DNA of 13,879 nucleotides from a virus (taxonomy: Duplodnaviria; Heunggongvirae; Uroviricota; Caudoviricetes). The stretch lies in IMG/VR virus record IMGVR_UViG_2703718788_000009; one strand, 5' to 3'. The notes beneath the pieces were generated by a model that saw only the letters and a list, made by a program, of their open reading frames with translations, did not search any database and had not been told where the DNA came from. This document shows, piece by piece, positions 5,735 through 12,410 of the stretch. The stretch's first letter is position 1. Each line of letters starts with the position of its first letter. The position numbers were made by a program, and so were the translations under genes.

Positions 5735-6070
5735 TTATTGTGCAACACGCAAATCGCCATTGCTGGCAGCGATAACAGCGGCTAAGCCTTCTTTATCCAC
5801 GTAGGCCGGATTGATATAACAGCCCTTGTTGGCAACAACGATAAAAGCATCACCAACCTCAGCACGTTCTACAACCAGCAGCGGAGTTTTACCGGTGTGC
5901 GTTGCTTTAACGAAGGTCTCAACCTCGCCAGCCTCAGTCACCACAACAACAGTGCCAGCCGGAATCTCAGCTTTAACTTTGTTTTTAATTTCAACGTCGC
6001 GAATACTAAATTGCTCATCTGCGGCGTATGAAATGATGTGTCCGCGTGTGCGGATAGTCATATCTCTCAT
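5735..6070 (-). CDS. putative head decoration or auxiliary capsid protein (by position)
   Basis: 111-aa ORF whose TAA stop overlaps the capsid gene's SD. Val/Thr/Gly-rich and beta-like. The assignment is positional (lambda D-E order), not from sequence identity. Confidence 0.45.
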   Translation of the reverse strand: MRDMTIRTRGHIISYAADEQFSIRDVEIKNKVKAEIPAGTVVVVTEAGEVETFVKATHTGKTPLLVVERAEVGDAFIVVANKGCYINPAYVDKEGLAAVIAASNGDLRVAQ

Positions 6071-6195
6071 TTGATCACCTGCGATTTAAATTAACTCCCC
6101 TCAAAGAGTTCCGGTATAACCTCTCAAACCACGACAGGCTCGGGCCGAAAAGTTATGCCGGAAATCTAAAGGGAAATTGATACAAGGAGAGGGAG

Positions 6196-6225
6196 ATAGC
6201 CCCGCACCGTCCAAGCGGGGGCTAT
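6196..6225. other. GC-rich stem-loop in the capsid-operon leader
   Basis: atagccccgc / gcgggggctat pairs as a roughly 10-bp stem with one bulge and a 9-nt loop. No U-tract on either strand, so not a classic terminator. Confidence 0.35.
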
Positions 6226-6548
6226 TCCACATGGGGAAACCGACAACAGTCGGATGATAGTTCACAGTATGGGTTACGGTTACTAGAGAGCACTATCACG
6301 AAAGGCACTCCCCCGAATCAGTTCAGGCTGCGGTCACATCAGCGGGGAAATACCTTTCGGGATAGCTACCCACACAGAAAACCCGCAAAAGAAAACTGTG
6401 TGGATAACTAGCCCAATAGGAGAATTAATCGACCACTCAACGATGATCAGGGTAGTGTTATTTATAAGGCGGCACCGCTACCTGGTCGCCTTTACTTTGG
6501 AGGAAAATACGGCAAATCACTTTCACCATTGATTTACGGTATATGTAT

Positions 6549-6577
6549 ATTATATCAGTATTCTCTCAAATTGTCAA
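6549..6577 (-). promoter_or_regulatory. perfect-consensus sigma70 promoter (TTGACA-N17-TATAAT) on the minus strand, directed at the capsid operon
   Basis: The reverse complement of 6549..6577 reads TTGACA atttgagagaatactga TATAAT, with an AT-rich stretch upstream. Predicted start near 6540, about 470 nt before the ATG at 6070. Confidence 0.6.
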
Positions 6578-6841
6578 CACCCTGATTATATAAATTCTAA
6601 TAATTAGCGTAGTAACGGTATTTTCAGACTGCTATCAATCCCATCAATACGTCACCCCCACCCTTTAGATGCATACATCCGACCTACTTTGTAGGCTTGG
6701 CGTACTGCCAAGGTCGAAGCTATGCGACTCATATCTATCACCACTTTATAAAGCTTGATAGATATCTTTTGATCAATATCAATGTTTTCCGGGGATTTAC
6801 CCGGCTATAGTTCGAATCAAGGAAGGGGAGCATTGATAGAG

Positions 6842-6890
6842 ACACCCAAAGGGGTGACTGAAAGTCACCTGGCATAGCCAGTGAAAGCAC
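6842..6890. repeat. 50-bp repeat, copy A (palindromes GGTGAC-N5-GTCACC and CTGGC-N3-GCCAG)
   Basis: About 42 of 49 positions match 12072..12120; lies about 45 bp upstream of the ATG at 6934. Confidence 0.8.
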
Positions 6891-6933
6891 CCAACCGAAC
6901 AAACAAATCAACTTCTCGCAAAAGGTGATAGTT

Positions 6934-7056
6934 ATGGGTATCAAGAACAGTGCCAGCGCATGGCAAAAGGCCAGGTTTCATCACCCACACATTGTTAAGG
7001 CAATTGAGGTGGTTGGAGTGTTAGCCCTGATGTTAGCTCTGTGTGTGGAGGTGTGA
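6934..7056 (+). CDS. small hydrophobic peptide (41 aa), first ORF of a plus-strand module
   Basis: ATG at 6934 with SD 'aaggtga'; MGIKNSASAWQKARFHHPHIVKAIEVVGVLALMLALCVEV, with a C-terminal transmembrane-like helix. A second 26-aa peptide (7058..7138) follows with SD GGAGG. Below the ORF-track threshold. Confidence 0.3.
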   Translation: MGIKNSASAWQKARFHHPHIVKAIEVVGVLALMLALCVEV

Positions 7057-7157
7057 GATGGGCAAAGGAGGCAAAGCATTTTTAATAGGTCTGGCAGTCT
7101 TAGATTTTGTATTAATCATCATTGAGCGGAGTTTATGAACAGCATTGAGAGGAGTTT

Positions 7158-7418
7158 ATGACGGGGGCTAAAGATATCAGGAGATTGAGGGAAGAGCTGA
7201 TAGCTGAAATTAAAGCTAAGGCAAAGCAAATGGAGATAGCCGCACAAATGGATGTAGCGGAACAGATGTACAAGATGGTTGAAGAGGGAACACCACGGCA
7301 GGTTATAGCAAAAACATTTGGTGTGGGGATCGCCACCGTGCACAGAAGGCTGAAAGCCTATGCCGACTACCACAATATCGAGAGAAAGGAGGATGGGAGA
7401 TTTAAGAAGAATAAATAG
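7158..7418 (+). CDS. small DNA-binding protein with a helix-turn-helix motif
   Basis: 86-aa ORF with SD 'gagagg'. The motif TPRQVIAKTFGVGIATVHRRLK looks like an HTH of the resolvase or IS3 OrfA type; the N-terminus looks coiled-coil. Confidence 0.6.
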   Translation: MTGAKDIRRLREELIAEIKAKAKQMEIAAQMDVAEQMYKMVEEGTPRQVIAKTFGVGIATVHRRLKAYADYHNIERKEDGRFKKNK

Positions 7419-7475
7419 TAGGAACAGTCCAACAGGTTATTAACTAAATTCAACTTCTCGCAAAGAGGTACCATT

Positions 7476-8162
7476 ATGTTTAAAGGTCTTGTTGTTACGC
7501 TATTGGCTTGCATTGTATTTGGTCCATGGGTGTTAGTAATTGCTTTACCTATATTGCTGATCATGAGCTTAGGGAATGATATTAAAAAGCTGCAAAAGCT
7601 GCATGCACAATATAAGGAGAATCCCGGCGCGTTCATGGTAAGTCTGGTTATAGTCGCGGGGCTTATTGGATGGGTGTATTTCTCCCTCCCCACAGGAAAT
7701 ACAACTGCAAATGTAGAAGAGGCCGCAGTGGTAGAGGAAAAAGCCAACAAAGGATTCAGATTTATTGTTGGTGTGGATAGCCCAGTATATGGCCCTGAAG
7801 CTGTGGATCCTGCAATGGTGCATGCCTGGTTATGGAACAGAACGGAGAAAGGTAGCTGCAATCAACTAAAAGCGAGCGCCAACATAGAAGAGGAAGGAGA
7901 TACATTTTTCGCATGGTGTAAAGATATCAAAGGCAATGATAGGTGGTTTACCATTACCAATATTGTAGGTGTTTCCCGTTCACTAATGAATCACCCTGAG
8001 GCTAAGAATCCGCTAACAGGTGTCCGATTAAAAGATGGCCCAATATGGATCGATTTATACGGAACACAAATCACTGAGGGCGTGAACAGCGATATCCAGG
8101 ATAAGCTGAAAGACATAAATAATCAGTATGGTGCGATTGTTGAAACCTCTCCTATGAAATAA
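7476..8162 (+). CDS. membrane protein with two N-terminal transmembrane helices and a roughly 150-aa C-terminal domain, possibly superinfection exclusion
   Basis: 228-aa ORF with SD 'agagg'. Hydrophobic segments at about residues 5..30 and 53..70, separated by a Lys-rich loop. Function is a hypothesis. Confidence 0.6.
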   Translation: MFKGLVVTLLACIVFGPWVLVIALPILLIMSLGNDIKKLQKLHAQYKENPGAFMVSLVIVAGLIGWVYFSLPTGNTTANVEEAAVVEEKANKGFRFIVGVDSPVYGPEAVDPAMVHAWLWNRTEKGSCNQLKASANIEEEGDTFFAWCKDIKGNDRWFTITNIVGVSRSLMNHPEAKNPLTGVRLKDGPIWIDLYGTQITEGVNSDIQDKLKDINNQYGAIVETSPMK

Positions 8163-8182
8163 CCACACCTACCCAACCTACC

Positions 8183-8216
8183 AGGGCCACCACTTAGGAT
8201 GGCCCTTTTTATTTAT
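8183..8216 (+). terminator. rho-independent terminator of the 6934..8162 module
   Basis: 7-bp stem agggcca / tggccct with a 10-nt loop, followed by 'ttttatttat', 21 nt after the stop codon. Confidence 0.7.
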
Positions 8217-8220
8217 GTGC

Positions 8221-8280
8221 TATTTAATACCCATTTATCCCCTATTTAATGCCTATTTATTGATTTAATCCGTTTTATGC
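8221..8280. repeat. phased TATTTA(A/T) repeats at roughly 11-bp spacing; possibly bent DNA or an architectural-protein site
   Basis: tatttaatacc / atttatcccc / tatttaatgcc / tatttattgat / ttaatccg / ttttatgcc in succession. Confidence 0.4.
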
Positions 8281-8340
8281 CACAACCGCCCGGTTGACAG
8301 AGTAAGAGAGAGGGTGTAACCCTTTTTCGTAATACTAATA

Positions 8341-8360
8341 AAATCAATAAGTTAGCTTAA
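8341..8360. repeat. copy 2 of 20-bp repeat 'aaatcaataagttagcYtaa'
   Basis: See 2449..2469. Confidence 0.7.
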
Positions 8361-9368
8361 TAAGCCTTTTCTCTATTTTTGTCAAATTTAACATACCCTA
8401 AAAAACTGCAAAATCTGACTGCAAGATTATCTGCAGCTGGATTTCTTACACCTCAATTTGTGGTATCACCCTGACTAGTTTGTGCATAAAATGAACAGTT
8501 TTTAACATTTCCTATTCACCTGGTAACCACACAAAAAGCTAAAAACGAGGCACAGATAATCTTAGAGGCCTGTTTTCTTGTTATCACTATGGGAACGTCG
8601 TAGAAGTGATTTTGATGAAAGATGACCTACCCTATTACACCCCCATTTTTTGTTATCACAATTGCATCCTGTGCGGTATATGGCTGTGTGCTGAAAGCGG
8701 TCTTGGGTGTGGGTGTCAGAAATATCCATTAGCGGTATTAATACCCGTCAGATGTTCGTCTGAGGTGCCAGGCAGGCGCTCCCCCACCTCCCTTTTTTCT
8801 TCTAACAATTCTCAAATATCACACCACTGCCCACCACGTTGCTATTATGTTAATTCTTAAGCTTTGCTGTATGTTGTGCACATTATTTATTCAGGTGCGT
8901 GTACGTAAATTCTGGGCCTCCTTATCATGATTTTTAAATCAGATTTTGTAGTGCGCTTTATTAGTGTAGATAAGATCTATTATGTTAAATGCAATTTTCC
9001 CAACCCTTCAAATCAATGACTTACATGTAAGCATGCACTAACACCCCACACAGCACATTAGACGTGTAGATGTCTATATCCCACATTTTTGATTGTTTTG
9101 TAGTCATTCCCCTGATCATTTAACCAGTATAGTTTGCTATCTGCAGACCACAAAATCGGAATTTACATCTGATTAACATAATCTGTTAGCATGATCACCA
9201 TTACCCACACAACAATAACCCCATGCAAGCCTCTTTAGGCAATTTATCGGCGTGTTGGTGTGAACAGTCTTTCATGTTCTTTATGTATTCATGACTGCAA
9301 GGAATGTATTCATTGGCCTGTGTGGGGGAAGGATGGACTGCCCCAGGGGCCATACTTATGATGCCCGG

Positions 9369-9404
9369 TCAACATAAGTGTTGATAAAATCAAGGGGTGT
9401 TGAT
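9369..9404. promoter_or_regulatory. pair of adjacent inverted repeats (TCAACA-N4-TGTTGA and ATCAA-N6-TTGAT); candidate operator
   Basis: Both have perfect arms; they sit just upstream of the iteron cluster. Confidence 0.4.
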
Positions 9405-9426
9405 CTGCATATTTCCCACACATGAG

Positions 9427-9456
9427 AGGAAATCAGAGCAAAGAGAGAGGAGAGAG
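9427..9456. repeat. polypurine (GA-rich) tract
   Basis: A 30-nt run of almost only A and G on the plus strand. Confidence 0.5.
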
Positions 9457-9465
9457 GTTTGTTAG

Positions 9466-9520
9466 TCAAAATCAAGTCACATTAGAGTCAAATCAAGTCA
9501 AATCAGATGCAATCAATCCC
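9466..9520. repeat. cluster of 'aatcaagtca'-type direct repeats
   Basis: gtcaaaatcaagtca, gtcaaatcaagtca, aatcagatgca, aatcaatccc in tandem. Confidence 0.6.
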
Positions 9521-9521
9521 C

Positions 9522-9586
9522 CACCTGTTGGGATTTCCCACATGTTCAACCATACACAGGAGCTAACCTGTTGGGATTTCCTACAC
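9522..9586. repeat. two copies of 'acctgttgggatttccYaca', 45 bp apart
   Basis: 9522..9541 and 9567..9586 are near-identical. Confidence 0.7.
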
Positions 9587-9639
9587 CTCTTGCACATACC
9601 CCGGAAGATTTTTCCGGTGTGCCATCTTTGCAGGCTCCA

Positions 9640-9807
9640 ACCTGTGAAGAATTTTCACACCTGTAAATCCATACAGCACGGTAAAAACTACCGCACCACC
9701 TGTCAAAATATTTTACTACCCCACCAATAATACGGCCCATACCTGTAAAATATTTTTACTACTACCTGTCAAAATCTTTTACTACTACCTGTAAAAATAT
9801 TTGACAC
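9640..9807. repeat. iteron array with ACCTGT core (part of the candidate replication origin)
   Basis: ACCTGT occurs at 9640, 9659, 9698, 9741, 9764 and 9787, plus 9523 and 9566 in the preceding repeat. The last four sit in units of about 23 bp, 'acctgt(c)aaaatattttactac', three of them directly tandem. Confidence 0.7.
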
Positions 9808-9839
9808 TAATAGATAAAGTAACAGACCACACAATAGAT

Positions 9840-9865
9840 CCCCCCCTAACCCCCCCCCCAGGGGG
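9840..9865. repeat. homopolymer tracts C7-TAA-C10-A-G5, bracketed by GATC sites
   Basis: Read directly: gatcccccccctaacccccccccaggggg, with GATC at 9837..9840 and 9876..9879. Confidence 0.8.
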
Positions 9866-9902
9866 AATGGGGAGGGATCAGAGAGTGGGGAAGGTTTATC
9901 AA

Positions 9903-10027
9903 TATATCAAATTGATATACTTAGCTAGATGTATCAATTAATACACTTAAAGGTGAGCAATGCTTAGCTAGATGTATCAATCCGATACACTTAGAATATT
10001 CTAGATGTATCAATTAATACACTTAAA
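9903..10027. repeat. 17-bp perfect palindrome followed by three direct repeats of about 30 bp
   Basis: Palindrome tatatcaa-a-ttgatata at 9903..9919; repeats 'ctagatgtatcaat..atacactta' at 9920..9951, 9963..9994 and 9999..10027. Confidence 0.75.
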
Positions 10028-10906
10028 TCACGTAACTTATTGTATTTATTAAGAAAAGTCATCTACCTATATATACTACTGATTCGCCTCCGCTCATCAT
10101 TAGTATGGTGTAACTGATTCATGCTTCGCTTACGCTCACATTCATCTACTTACACCCCCTTATCTGAATTGAACATTCCCGTCCAATCCAGCTAAGAGAA
10201 TTGATTGAACATTACCTAACATCCGTTAGCTAACATTCTAATCAATTAACTACTTAAACACTTCCACACCTTCCGGTGGTGCCAAGTAACCTGGCATGGT
10301 GGGAAAAGATTCTGCCGTTTTAGGTAGAATTGATTTCCCACAAATAGTAAGTGTCGGCCCTTCAATGTCACTCTCCTATGAGGGGAGAGATGACGGGCCT
10401 CCTGTGTGGGTGAGTATCGGAGCAGTCTGTGAAGTATGAGCAGGCTGTGAGATACGCTACTGTATATCTGCGTAGAACAGCCTCCGCTGTTTACGCTCTT
10501 TGTGTGGTCCGGCGAATGCGTCAGCATGAGGCCCACATGTGGACCGCTGCCGAAAGCTTGCCAGCGCCGGAAGGAGGCAGCAAAGAGTCTCCCGCGCTCA
10601 TGTGTGGGCGTATACGTAAGATATACATTCATAAATCCAATCCTAGGCCCCTAAATGGCCTTCTGGCTGCATTAACCTGTGTGAGTAGTGCAATTGCATT
10701 ACCTGATGCTTAAATCGCGTTGTAGGGCCTCTCATAGAGAATTTAACTATCAAGATAAAAATTGCAGATCGGTCTATTGACAATCTTATTGCATAAATGC
10801 TATAAGTTATTCTGGTTTTGACACGGTAGGGGCCATTAATAATGCTTACCCCCTTTGCTGTGGACTTGCTTGCACCTATAGCACACCTAAATGATAATAA
10901 TTCTCA

Positions 10907-10935
10907 TTGACAATTGGTTGACAATATGATAAGAT
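10907..10935 (+). promoter_or_regulatory. candidate sigma70 promoter (TTGACA-N17-TAAGAT) upstream of a small ORF
   Basis: Consensus -35 at 10907..10912, a 4-of-6 -10 at 10930..10935, and a second overlapping TTGACA at 10918. Confidence 0.35.
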
Positions 10936-10970
10936 TATAAATAGGGGGAGAAACAGATCCGGAGGTCAAT

Positions 10971-11120
10971 GTGGAAATTACTGATGCAATAGCGATCATC
11001 AACCTGGCTGTACTGTGGTGCGGTGTTGCCTACATAGCCGGAGTAACTGCAATAGACAATCTTGAAGAAAAAATGATAGATAAATACAAAAAGATTGTTG
11101 ACAATTTGACGAATGTTTGA
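10971..11120 (+). CDS. small membrane protein (49 aa, GTG start), possibly holin-like or toxin-like
   Basis: GGAGG 5 nt upstream of the GTG; VEITDAIAIINLAVLWCGVAYIAGVTAIDNLEEKMIDKYKKIVDNLTNV has one transmembrane-like helix and a charged C-terminal tail. Absent from the ORF track. Confidence 0.3.
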   Translation: MEITDAIAIINLAVLWCGVAYIAGVTAIDNLEEKMIDKYKKIVDNLTNV

Positions 11121-11126
11121 TAAAAT
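11098..11126 (+). promoter_or_regulatory. strong sigma70 promoter (TTGACA-N17-TAAAAT) for the leader and Rep operon
   Basis: -35 at 11098..11103, a 17-nt spacer, -10 at 11121..11126. Confidence 0.6.
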
Positions 11127-11176
11127 ATAAAGCATAGGGTAATTCTCAGCATGTGAATTTTCCTTAAACAGACTAG

Positions 11177-11206
11177 CGGGGCTTGTCTTGAGTCCCGTTT
11201 CTTTTT
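11177..11206 (+). terminator. intrinsic terminator or attenuator in the leader between the promoter and the first operon gene
   Basis: Stem cggggc / gtcccg (one G-U pair) with a 9-nt loop, followed by 'tttcttttt'. It lies about 45 nt after the predicted start and 44 nt before the ATG at 11250. Confidence 0.55.
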
Positions 11207-11249
11207 AAACCTACATCGCACAGGCGATGAGCTGACAGGAGATTGAATC

Positions 11250-11459
11250 ATGGCTAAAACCGGACCGATAAGCCAGCTGGTAAACTGGACTACTGACGAA
11301 ATCGTCGAGAACGTGCTTAAAGGTAACTTTCGCAAAACTTCCGTTTATGCATTTATTCGAAAACACAAAGGAGAATATCCACACATTGAAGCGGCAATAG
11401 AAAAATTAAACTTTATTAAACTTGAGCGCCAGCTTGAAAGATATAAACACCTACTTTAA
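11250..11459 (+). CDS. hypothetical small basic protein, possibly a regulator; first gene of the Rep operon
   Basis: 69-aa ORF with SD 'aggag' 8 nt upstream. Confidence 0.55.
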   Translation: MAKTGPISQLVNWTTDEIVENVLKGNFRKTSVYAFIRKHKGEYPHIEAAIEKLNFIKLERQLERYKHLL

Positions 11460-11495: not shown

Positions 11496-12410
11496 ATGAA
11501 TATTGAGTCTGTTTTTAATATAACTTTAAATGATGATCCTAGTATCCTTTTGCTGCCAATGCTCATAAATAAATCTGGACTATTAAAAAGAGGCGACGCA
11601 AGGGATATCTATATTTACATGTGGAATACTTACTATCTCCACGCTAAAAAAGAGGCCGCCAAGGTGTTCAGCAAGAAGACTAAAGGAAGAAGCCTCAGCC
11701 AGGATATGAAAAACTCCATCAGAAAAGAGTGTTTTGCTATTAAAGATAAAGATTCCTGTGTGGAGATCTCTTATAAGGATATAGAGGAAAGAATTGGAAT
11801 ACTGCGACCAAATGCAGTAAGGGCAATTAAAAAGCTGGAATCTGAAGGAATTATCACCTGCCTTAAAAAAGGCAATAAGCATAACCCTTATGCATCATGG
11901 CAAATTAATGTCGGAATCTTTGAAATGATGGAAAGAGTAGGGATTGAAAACCTCATTGGGTGGGATCTCTTAAAACCATATTGGAAGAAAGAACAGGAAG
12001 CAGCCGGAAGAGGGGAGGGGGCCAAAGCTCCACAGGAAGCTCCAAAACAAGCCGCACAGCAGCCTGAAGACACACCCGAAGGGGTGACCGTAGGTCACCT
12101 GGCTAAGCCAGCGAAAGAGTCCAAAGTGGTGCAATTCCCTTCTGTGAAAGATAAAGACGTTAGCGTAGAGCACAACTCTTATTCCGAAAGTGTGACAACG
12201 TCACCTGTTAAGGCAAACAAGAAGGAGGCATCTAAAGTGATAGATATTTCTTCTTTTATGGCAGATGAAGATGATACGCAAGATGTGTGGTATACACCTT
12301 CAGAAAATGATTATAGTGGTAGTGGTGGTTATGATCCTTATGGCTATGATGAGGATGAATACAACCCATTTGAAGATGAATATACAAATGATTCCGCTAT
12401 CCCTTATTAA
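11496..12410 (+). CDS. putative replication initiator (winged-helix, lambda-O/RepA-like N-terminal domain) with a long disordered acidic C-terminal tail
   Basis: 304-aa ORF with SD 'agagg'. The segment 'VEISYKDIEERIGILRPNAVRAIKKLESEGIITC' resembles the winged-helix DNA-binding domain of lambda O 'RITDSQLSEITKLPVKRCNEAKLELVRMNII', recalled from memory. The C-terminal 140 aa are low-complexity and end in ...EDEYTNDSAIPY. Confidence 0.55.
   Translation: MNIESVFNITLNDDPSILLLPMLINKSGLLKRGDARDIYIYMWNTYYLHAKKEAAKVFSKKTKGRSLSQDMKNSIRKECFAIKDKDSCVEISYKDIEERIGILRPNAVRAIKKLESEGIITCLKKGNKHNPYASWQINVGIFEMMERVGIENLIGWDLLKPYWKKEQEAAGRGEGAKAPQEAPKQAAQQPEDTPEGVTVGHLAKPAKESKVVQFPSVKDKDVSVEHNSYSESVTTSPVKANKKEASKVIDISSFMADEDDTQDVWYTPSENDYSGSGGYDPYGYDEDEYNPFEDEYTNDSAIPY
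12072..12120. repeat. 50-bp repeat, copy B, embedded in the Rep-like coding sequence
   Basis: Matches 6842..6890; encodes ...TPEGVTVGHLAKPAKE... in the disordered tail. Confidence 0.8.

Follow-up and report, generated by a model that had tools for sequence, protein, structure and literature searches.

A conserved 49-codon gene for a predicted inner-membrane protein overlaps a putative replication promoter in a family of phage-related Escherichia coli/Shigella plasmids

The viral record IMGVR_UViG_2703718788_000009 (Caudoviricetes) is a stretch of 13,879 nt, called the window here, that corresponds to a small circular plasmid. On its plus strand lies ORF49 (10971-11120), an open reading frame (ORF) with a GTG start and a TGA stop that encodes the 49-aa product MEITDAIAIINLAVLWCGVAYIAGVTAIDNLEEKMIDKYKKIVDNLTNV. 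Substitution patterns among related loci show, with high confidence, that ORF49 is a genuine protein-coding gene under purifying selection. The explanation that best accounts for the evidence as a whole, at a probability of roughly 60%, is that this gene specifies a small inner-membrane accessory protein that would be made while the plasmid is carried.

The coding evidence comes from 33 related loci that contain the full ORF, drawn from RefSeq plasmids, NCBI and Logan assemblies and metagenomes. Together with the window these make 34 loci and 18 distinct DNA alleles, all of which retain 49 codons while the start toggles between GTG and ATG. Variable sites fall at codon positions 1, 2 and 3 in a ratio of 11:7:25 over the whole ORF (chi-square p=0.002); within codons 2-31, they affect 7/30 first, 4/30 second and 21/30 third positions. 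Nei-Gojobori ratios of non-synonymous to synonymous substitution rates (dN/dS) range from 0.05 to 0.33 in the ORF49 frame; for the two other forward frames, most values are near 1 or higher (range 0.10-4.85). Compared with the most divergent allele (L010), the window has 16.5 synonymous differences over 31.7 sites and 10.5 non-synonymous differences over 112.3 sites, a dN/dS of 0.11 and a highly uneven partition (Fisher p=8e-7). Protein-level selection peaks in the helix part of ORF49, where the same comparison restricted to codons 2-31 yields proportions of synonymous and non-synonymous differences (pS and pN) of 0.67 and 0.08. It follows from the pattern in codons 2-31 that the amino-acid sequence itself is selected, as promoter DNA cannot account for it. 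An initial annotation of this DNA had proposed a real coding gene, and the third-position bias, the low dN/dS and the fixed length of 49 codons confirm it. The opposite case, in which the sequence behaves as promoter DNA only, is contradicted by the substitutions in codons 2-31.

The 3′ third of the gene follows a different regime. Codons 32-45 (11064-11105, plus strand) encode EEKMIDKYKKIVDN and read GAA GAA AAA ATG ATA GAT AAA TAC AAA AAG ATT GTT GAC AAT; the same DNA comprises an A-rich, UP-like region and the -35 element of a second promoter, P2. These codons are invariant across the alleles save for two rare changes, I36T and D37E. A single third position out of 14 is variable, against 21 of 30 in codons 2-31 (Fisher p=0.0002), and no allele pair tested shows a synonymous difference in the block. 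To judge from these counts, codons 32-45 are frozen as DNA serving P2. Their position and composition further suggest an UP-element-like role, with the lysine codons of the tail forming the A-tract immediately upstream of the P2 -35.

P2 is the predicted promoter of the leader, a 69-aa gene and the Rep operon, and spans 11098-11126 on the plus strand (TTGACA at 11098-11103, a 17-nt spacer and TG-A-TAAAAT; 11/12). Its -10 element, TAAAAT, occupies 11121-11126, and the TGA stop of ORF49 (11118-11120) supplies the TG of the extended -10. The 3′ end of the ORF does overlap the -35 and spacer of the Rep-operon promoter, as the initial annotation had stated. Because the last third of ORF49 is also P2 upstream and -35 DNA, the composition of the tail is partly dictated by the promoter, and the constraint on this DNA makes protein-level constraint inseparable in codons 32-45. 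Genes that carry the promoter of the next operon in their 3′ end are common in bacteria and phages, and ORF49 likewise holds the P2 -35, spacer and A-tract within codons 32-49. It differs from them in that the double constraint is directly visible, in the lack of synonymous variation across codons 32-45.

A Shine-Dalgarno (SD) sequence, GGAGG at 10961-10965 (plus strand), stands 5 nt (TCAAT) before the GTG, and it is unchanged in all alleles but one, which reads TGAGG. The GTG start with a well-spaced GGAGG had already been pointed out, and so had the spurious character of two minus-strand ORFs over the same DNA, neither of which is conserved across alleles. The 66-aa frame (10935-11135) meets a stop in one allele (L002), loses its ATG in many others and shifts in length, and the 101-aa frame (11030-11335) is present in this window only. 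The description of ORF49 as unannotated is accurate for the window and inaccurate for public records, where the Prokaryotic Genome Annotation Pipeline (PGAP) calls it in every RefSeq relative. The protein has RefSeq entries WP_157794903.1, WP_157909277.1 and WP_159042952.1, and its exact sequence is found on 784 contigs under the name "hypothetical protein". ORF49 is already known to databases as a hypothetical protein; it is an uncharacterised, probable small membrane protein.

The product is probably a 49-residue bitopic inner-membrane protein. A predicted transmembrane helix, AIAIINLAVLWCGVAYIAGVTAI, is encoded by codons 6-28 (10986-11054, plus strand) and is delimited by hydropathy, an AlphaFold2 helix and invariant columns. 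The Kyte-Doolittle maximum over 19 residues is 2.18, at residues 7-25, and no charged residue occurs within residues 6-28. AlphaFold2, run with an eight-sequence alignment, returns one continuous helix over residues 2-48 with a mean predicted local distance difference test score (pLDDT) of 82. Hydropathy alone is weak evidence, because about 6% of the window's stop-to-stop segments of 40-80 codons equal ORF49 in hydrophobicity. Taken with the single AlphaFold2 helix, the hydropathy maximum makes the one transmembrane helix of the initial annotation probable. Its lysine-rich C-terminus is right only in the literal sense that four Lys are there; the tail (residues 29-49) is not basic, as it also contains five Asp/Glu and has a net charge of -1.

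The 5-residue acidic N-terminus is probably periplasmic and the 21-residue amphipathic, mixed-charge tail probably cytoplasmic. Patterns of polar and small residues in membrane helices drive helix-helix association. In ORF49, the helix residues invariant across alleles are N11, C17, G18, Y21 and G24, which suggests that the helix associates with itself or with a partner. A lipoprotein reading was ruled out, since a basic n-region is absent and a Trp directly precedes Cys17.

ORF49 appears to be served by a promoter of its own. P1, a predicted sigma-70 promoter at 10907-10935 (plus strand), consists of TTGACA(AT), with the hexamer at 10907-10912, a 17-nt spacer and TG-A-TAAGAT (10/12 with TG), and its -35, TG and -10 are retained in every aligned allele. 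Transcription would start at about 10942 and leave a 5′ untranslated region (UTR) of some 29 nt; over these 29 nt, no terminator or attenuator stands between P1 and the SD/start region. An intrinsic terminator follows at 11175-11208 (plus strand), where an 11-pair hairpin (11175-11199) precedes the T run TTTCTTTTT. It is the top-listed terminator-like site of the window, the one with the most stem pairs (11), and it also appears in RNA folds. The terminator lies 55 nt past the ORF49 stop and 42 nt past the predicted P2 start. Its stem pairs persist through G-C, G-U and A-U changes among alleles, and the non-homologous leader of the L025 group has a hairpin and T run at the same position. The ORF49 mRNA probably ends at this site, and the gene would form a monocistronic unit of about 265 nt from P1 to the terminator.

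The same terminator may double as an attenuator between P2 and the downstream genes, namely the 69-aa gene (11250-11459, plus strand), the first of the P2 or replication operon, and a 304-aa protein encoded farther on. The P2 leader itself (11133-11249) is of separate interest. Unless the terminator is read through, P2 alone would yield an RNA about 75 nt long, and the leader, which is shared with a phage that seems to have captured this module (see below), may act as an attenuator or as a small regulatory RNA.

Promoter-like matches are in no excess over the whole window (23 versus 26 expected in shuffles); P3, P2 and P1 are its three best and stand apart from the rest. All three contain TTGACAAT, a 17-nt spacer and TGnTAxxAT, and TTGACAAT occurs five times in the window versus 0.7 expected. 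P3, the predicted sigma-70 promoter of the 111-aa/capsid operon (6577-6549, minus strand; 12/12, extended -10, TTGACAATTTGAGAGAATACTGATATAAT), is nearly identical to P2, and a leader of some 480 nt (6070-6548) separates it from that operon. P1 is paralogous to P2 and P3, and shares with P2 both TTGACAAT and an ATAGGG start region. Transcriptional interplay between P1 and P2 is possible. Repeats of GACAATCTT inside ORF49 were also considered as operators, and this was rejected for the copy at 11054, whose third codon positions vary freely.

Within a control region of mosaic make-up, ORF49 is better conserved than any other unit. All 33 related loci have the ORF49 region. Each of its two flanks, the left-hand DNA (~10770-10873) and the right-hand leader/first-gene/Rep module, comes in several non-homologous versions, and these recombine freely with ORF49 alleles. 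Nucleotide diversity is 0.076 in ORF49 versus 0.23-0.35 in the flanks. The earlier proposal that expression could be coupled to replication control does not hold up well in this setting: its basis was the overlap with P2 alone, and ORF49 is unchanged beside at least three non-homologous leader/Rep modules. Since ORF49 is kept beside such varied Rep modules, it would serve the plasmid whatever Rep is used, which speaks against a Rep-specific role.

Within the searches made, ORF49 is restricted to this plasmid family. Profile searches of Pfam, PHROGs, NCBIfam, PADLOC and PDB gave no informative relative. A word-indexed search of 5.8 billion proteins returned only ORF49 alleles of at least 84% identity and one chimera. 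An exhaustive hidden Markov model (HMM) search of 1.84 billion representative proteins returned the cluster of ORF49 itself, the chimera P0008 and two giant repetitive proteins, whose matches to the EEK/KYKK tail are taken as low-complexity noise. P0008 (82 aa) was ruled out as a distant homologue. It is a recombinant that joins a gene of rV5-like phages (Murica gp20 family, phrog_12604), in frame, to the final 24 codons of ORF49 at a 7-nt microhomology, TAACTGC. For structured RNAs, an Rfam scan of the whole window found nothing at gathering threshold, and a relaxed scan of 8100-11300 gave two matches far below gathering scores, neither in nor adjoining ORF49.

In the proposed mechanism, ORF49 would be transcribed from its own near-consensus sigma-70 promoter P1 and translated from a strong SD in a short leader free of structure, on an mRNA of about 265 nt that would end at the intrinsic terminator in the replication-operon leader. 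The protein would be produced continuously in plasmid-carrying cells, because ORF49 alone among the three consensus-promoter units follows its promoter directly. In contrast, a leader with a terminator precedes the replication operon, and the ~480-nt leader precedes the capsid operon. At the membrane, the protein would then act as an accessory factor of the carried state, either in exclusion or immunity or by modulating phage entry or lysis. This function is assigned with low confidence.

Two known systems offer parallels. HK97 gp15 is an example of a small prophage-encoded inner-membrane superinfection-exclusion protein. ORF49 is likewise tiny, has one helix and belongs to an element that also encodes a tape measure; like such proteins it is apparently a stand-alone unit with its own promoter, presumably expressed in the carried state. 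It differs in showing no sequence similarity to them in PHROGs, Pfam, PADLOC or the exhaustive search. The Vibrio cholerae satellite PLE, which parasitises a lytic myovirus and depends on it, encodes LidI, a small membrane protein with a role in lysis timing. The plasmid carrying ORF49 may also be a satellite; ORF49 differs from LidI in that no homology was detected and in what appears to be a constitutive-type promoter rather than an infection-induced one.

Several points weigh against reading ORF49 as a continuously made inner-membrane accessory protein. Its transcription, translation and membrane insertion are all deduced from sequence, and constitutive expression is read from the promoter consensus alone. 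By an additive Hessa-scale energy (about +0.4 to +0.5 kcal/mol), residues 6-28 are a borderline case for membrane insertion. All alleles come from one plasmid family and differ little (at least 84% amino-acid identity), so that a limited number of substitutions carries the selection signal. Homology support for function was nil in the exhaustive HMM search of 1.84 billion representative proteins. The element TTGACAAT, which contains the palindrome ATTGNCAAT, recurs at all three promoters and could be an operator. In addition, both minimum free energy (MFE) and consensus folds predict that the SD region pairs with UUUCC at about 11152-11165, so that translation of the full-length mRNA is possibly damped; this pairing has z=-1.6, shows no two-sided covariation and is absent from some alleles.

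Two competing explanations retain the protein and assign it another task. The architecture had been likened at the outset to holins, antiholins and type I toxins, a comparison left unsupported by the non-basic tail and by the lack of a lysis cassette, a family match or an antisense RNA gene; an accessory factor is more probable than either a lysis holin or a classical type I toxin. It is unlikely that ORF49 is a lysis-timing protein (a holin, an antiholin or a lysis-inhibition disruptor) that oligomerises and makes holes, or perturbs the holin/antiholin balance of a helper in favour of the satellite. The small size, the single helix and, within it, a polar Asn and Gly residues that never vary would suit such a role, and capsid and tail genes together with the links to lytic rV5-like phages make manipulation of a helper plausible. 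ORF49 also resembles single-helix (class III-like) holins and antiholins in combining one transmembrane helix with a charged tail, but that tail is net -1 (4 K versus 5 D/E) rather than basic, a dual-start motif is absent, and no holin family match was found in Pfam, PHROGs, NCBIfam or PDB. ORF49 adjoins neither an endolysin nor a spanin gene; its neighbours are non-coding DNA and the 69-aa/Rep operon. Endolysin is not the best match of any scanned ORF; the sole endolysin PHROG match is secondary and weak (E=6e-10) and belongs to a 259-aa Dit-like tail protein encoded about 7 kb off on the opposite strand. A consensus promoter without an attenuator would also be odd for a lethal hole-former. 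Post-segregational killing by a type I toxin, in which a stable mRNA is silenced by a short-lived antisense or P2-leader RNA until plasmid loss frees a depolarising peptide, is quite unlikely. ORF49 shares with plasmid toxins of this type (Hok/Sok, Fst/RNAII, Ldr, Ibs, TisB) a length below 60 aa, one hydrophobic helix and a plasmid location near the replication region, and its plasmid has no partition or toxin-antitoxin genes recognisable in Pfam, PHROGs and PADLOC scans. The predicted UUUCC pairing partner of the SD/start region (~11152-11165) also occurs in the short leader RNA made from P2, the L025-type leader, itself non-homologous, is complementary to the start region over about 13 bp (duplex z -2.3 to -2.9), and an antisense promoter-like site (11101-11073) falls exactly in the invariant block. 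However, this site scores only 9/12, a level not enriched over shuffles, and no minus-strand terminator occurs within 10700-11100. Duplex and fold scores are not significant in most alleles (z -0.05 to -1.6), and the long-range helix lacks two-sided covariation. The 5′ UTR of about 29 nt further contrasts with the long processed leaders of Hok-type mRNAs, the tail is acidic to neutral, and no match to a toxin family in Pfam, no antitoxin RNA in Rfam and no antitoxin RNA gene was found.

Two other explanations dispense with the peptide. That the frame is open by accident, its conservation being that of promoter or regulatory DNA, is very unlikely. It would fit codons 32-45, which are conserved as DNA independently of coding, as well as the absence of homologues beyond the plasmid family and the ~6% of random open segments in the window that match ORF49 in hydrophobicity; moreover, all that an rV5-like phage with the P2 module retained of ORF49 was its final 24 codons, in fusion with another gene. 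This explanation founders on codons 2-31, which lie outside the promoter block and vary mainly at third and synonymous sites (pS 0.67, pN 0.08), and on the GTG/ATG toggle, the retained SD and the constant length of 49 codons. The most improbable account makes ORF49 a regulatory upstream ORF or transcription unit, for which reading through P2 (by promoter occlusion or attenuator modulation) matters and the peptide does not. Transcription from P1 would run on through P2, its tandem partner, both transcripts would have the same terminator, and the two promoters are paralogous (TTGACAAT, ATAGGG start region). Yet the stop lies 55 nt ahead of the hairpin, beyond the reach of a terminating ribosome, and such a role leaves amino-acid-level selection on the helix unexplained and sits poorly with the persistence of an unaltered ORF49 next to non-homologous leaders and Rep types. 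The preferred reading is a small inner-membrane accessory protein.

The element that carries ORF49 is itself unusual. The window is a circular contig whose two ends share a 21-nt direct overlap, giving a unit of about 13,858 bp, and it is one of a family of circular, non-mobilizable plasmids, 13.2-14.3 kb in size, from E. coli/Shigella. PHROGs profiles identify a major head protein (phrog_29, E=3e-22) and a tape-measure protein (phrog_5255, E=6e-131); the plasmid also encodes a tail-completion protein (phrog_222 match) and the Dit-like baseplate protein of 259 aa. Only five ORFs in the window exceed 200 aa. Neither a terminase nor a portal is among these five, and no ORF is large enough or matches. 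Because capsid and tail genes are present without a terminase or portal, the element looks like a satellite or a defective mini-phage maintained as a plasmid. A plasmid-borne satellite or mini-phage of this type seems to be undescribed, and in the literature searched no paper mentions these plasmids or proteins, one accession listing excepted. Among 5.8 billion proteins, no relative of the capsid protein falls below 81% identity; 185,579 species genomes and IMG/VR contain no such relative either, and a tblastn search gave 0 matches in 50,697 phage genomes. With no distant relatives of the capsid to compare, a search for positional analogues of ORF49 in such relatives was ruled out as an approach. 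One RefSeq plasmid, NZ_CP043822.1 (p3RM10740, 39,610 bp), contains three copies of a 13.2-kb element and may be a head-to-tail trimer or an assembly artefact.

The 304-aa protein (11496-12410, plus strand) has weak similarity to replication initiators (phrog_678, E=4e-5). The label Rep is further supported by iteron-like repeats at 9464-9802, whose presence or absence tracks Rep type. The wider region from 8163 to 10970 (~2.8 kb) is without a credible gene in the window, and relatives also have no gene call there. Within it, 8200-9500 is about 90% conserved across nearly all relatives, and iteron-like repeats at 9464-9507 and 9690-9805 (ACCTGTnAAAATATTTTTACTAC) vary with Rep type. A hairpin made of C/G runs lies at 9840-9867, and three repeats of about 30 nt at 9920-10030 contain a palindrome (TAGATGTATCAATTAATACACTTA).

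Three independent links connect the plasmid family to rV5-like phages (Vequintavirinae). An rV5-like contig recovered from two sequencing runs, as L008 (38 kb, Logan ERR13318355; insert at 6173-7583) and L009, contains 1.41 kb of inserted DNA with 96% identity to plasmid pE275a_13 (NZ_CP035869). This insert begins inside ORF49 (window 11044) with the last 77 nt of the gene, P2 and the leader/terminator, and continues through the 69-aa gene, a 121-aa gene and the ~198 N-terminal residues (two thirds) of Rep. A lytic phage seems to have captured the replication-control module of the plasmid, a module that includes P2 and replication genes and excludes the membrane helix of ORF49. Elsewhere in the plasmid, window 10344-10597 is 86% identical to an unannotated intergenic site in 119 rV5-like genomes, and the tape-measure protein has its closest phage counterparts in rV5-like phages, with 24% identity. 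The non-coding cassette at 10344-10660 comprises three conserved blocks shared with a 660-nt intergenic region of the 119 rV5-like genomes. Block 1 forms a hairpin with one compensatory T-A to G-C change, and block 2 overlaps a weak SRP-like Rfam match (20.8 bits, below threshold). The cassette occurs in only a few related plasmids and could be a shared structured RNA or DNA site.

A bolder extension of these links would make ORF49 the always-on membrane effector of a so far undescribed, plasmid-borne satellite of lytic rV5-like phages, one with capsid and tail parts of its own. As such, it might control the entry of helper DNA or the timing of lysis, or exclude rivals, the gene and the replication promoter having co-evolved as one core around which the rest of the plasmid was shuffled. 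This extended picture is doubtful.

ORF49 provides a clear computational case for true coding in a 49-codon ORF, one third of which is doubly constrained, as protein and as promoter. Orphan small membrane genes are common, often missed and rarely validated, and this one is among the three units of the element with a near-consensus promoter. The plasmid family linked to rV5-like phages is a more interesting object than ORF49 itself. Within that family, the presence of ORF49 at 33/33 loci in an otherwise mosaic region indicates that the gene is probably important to the plasmid.

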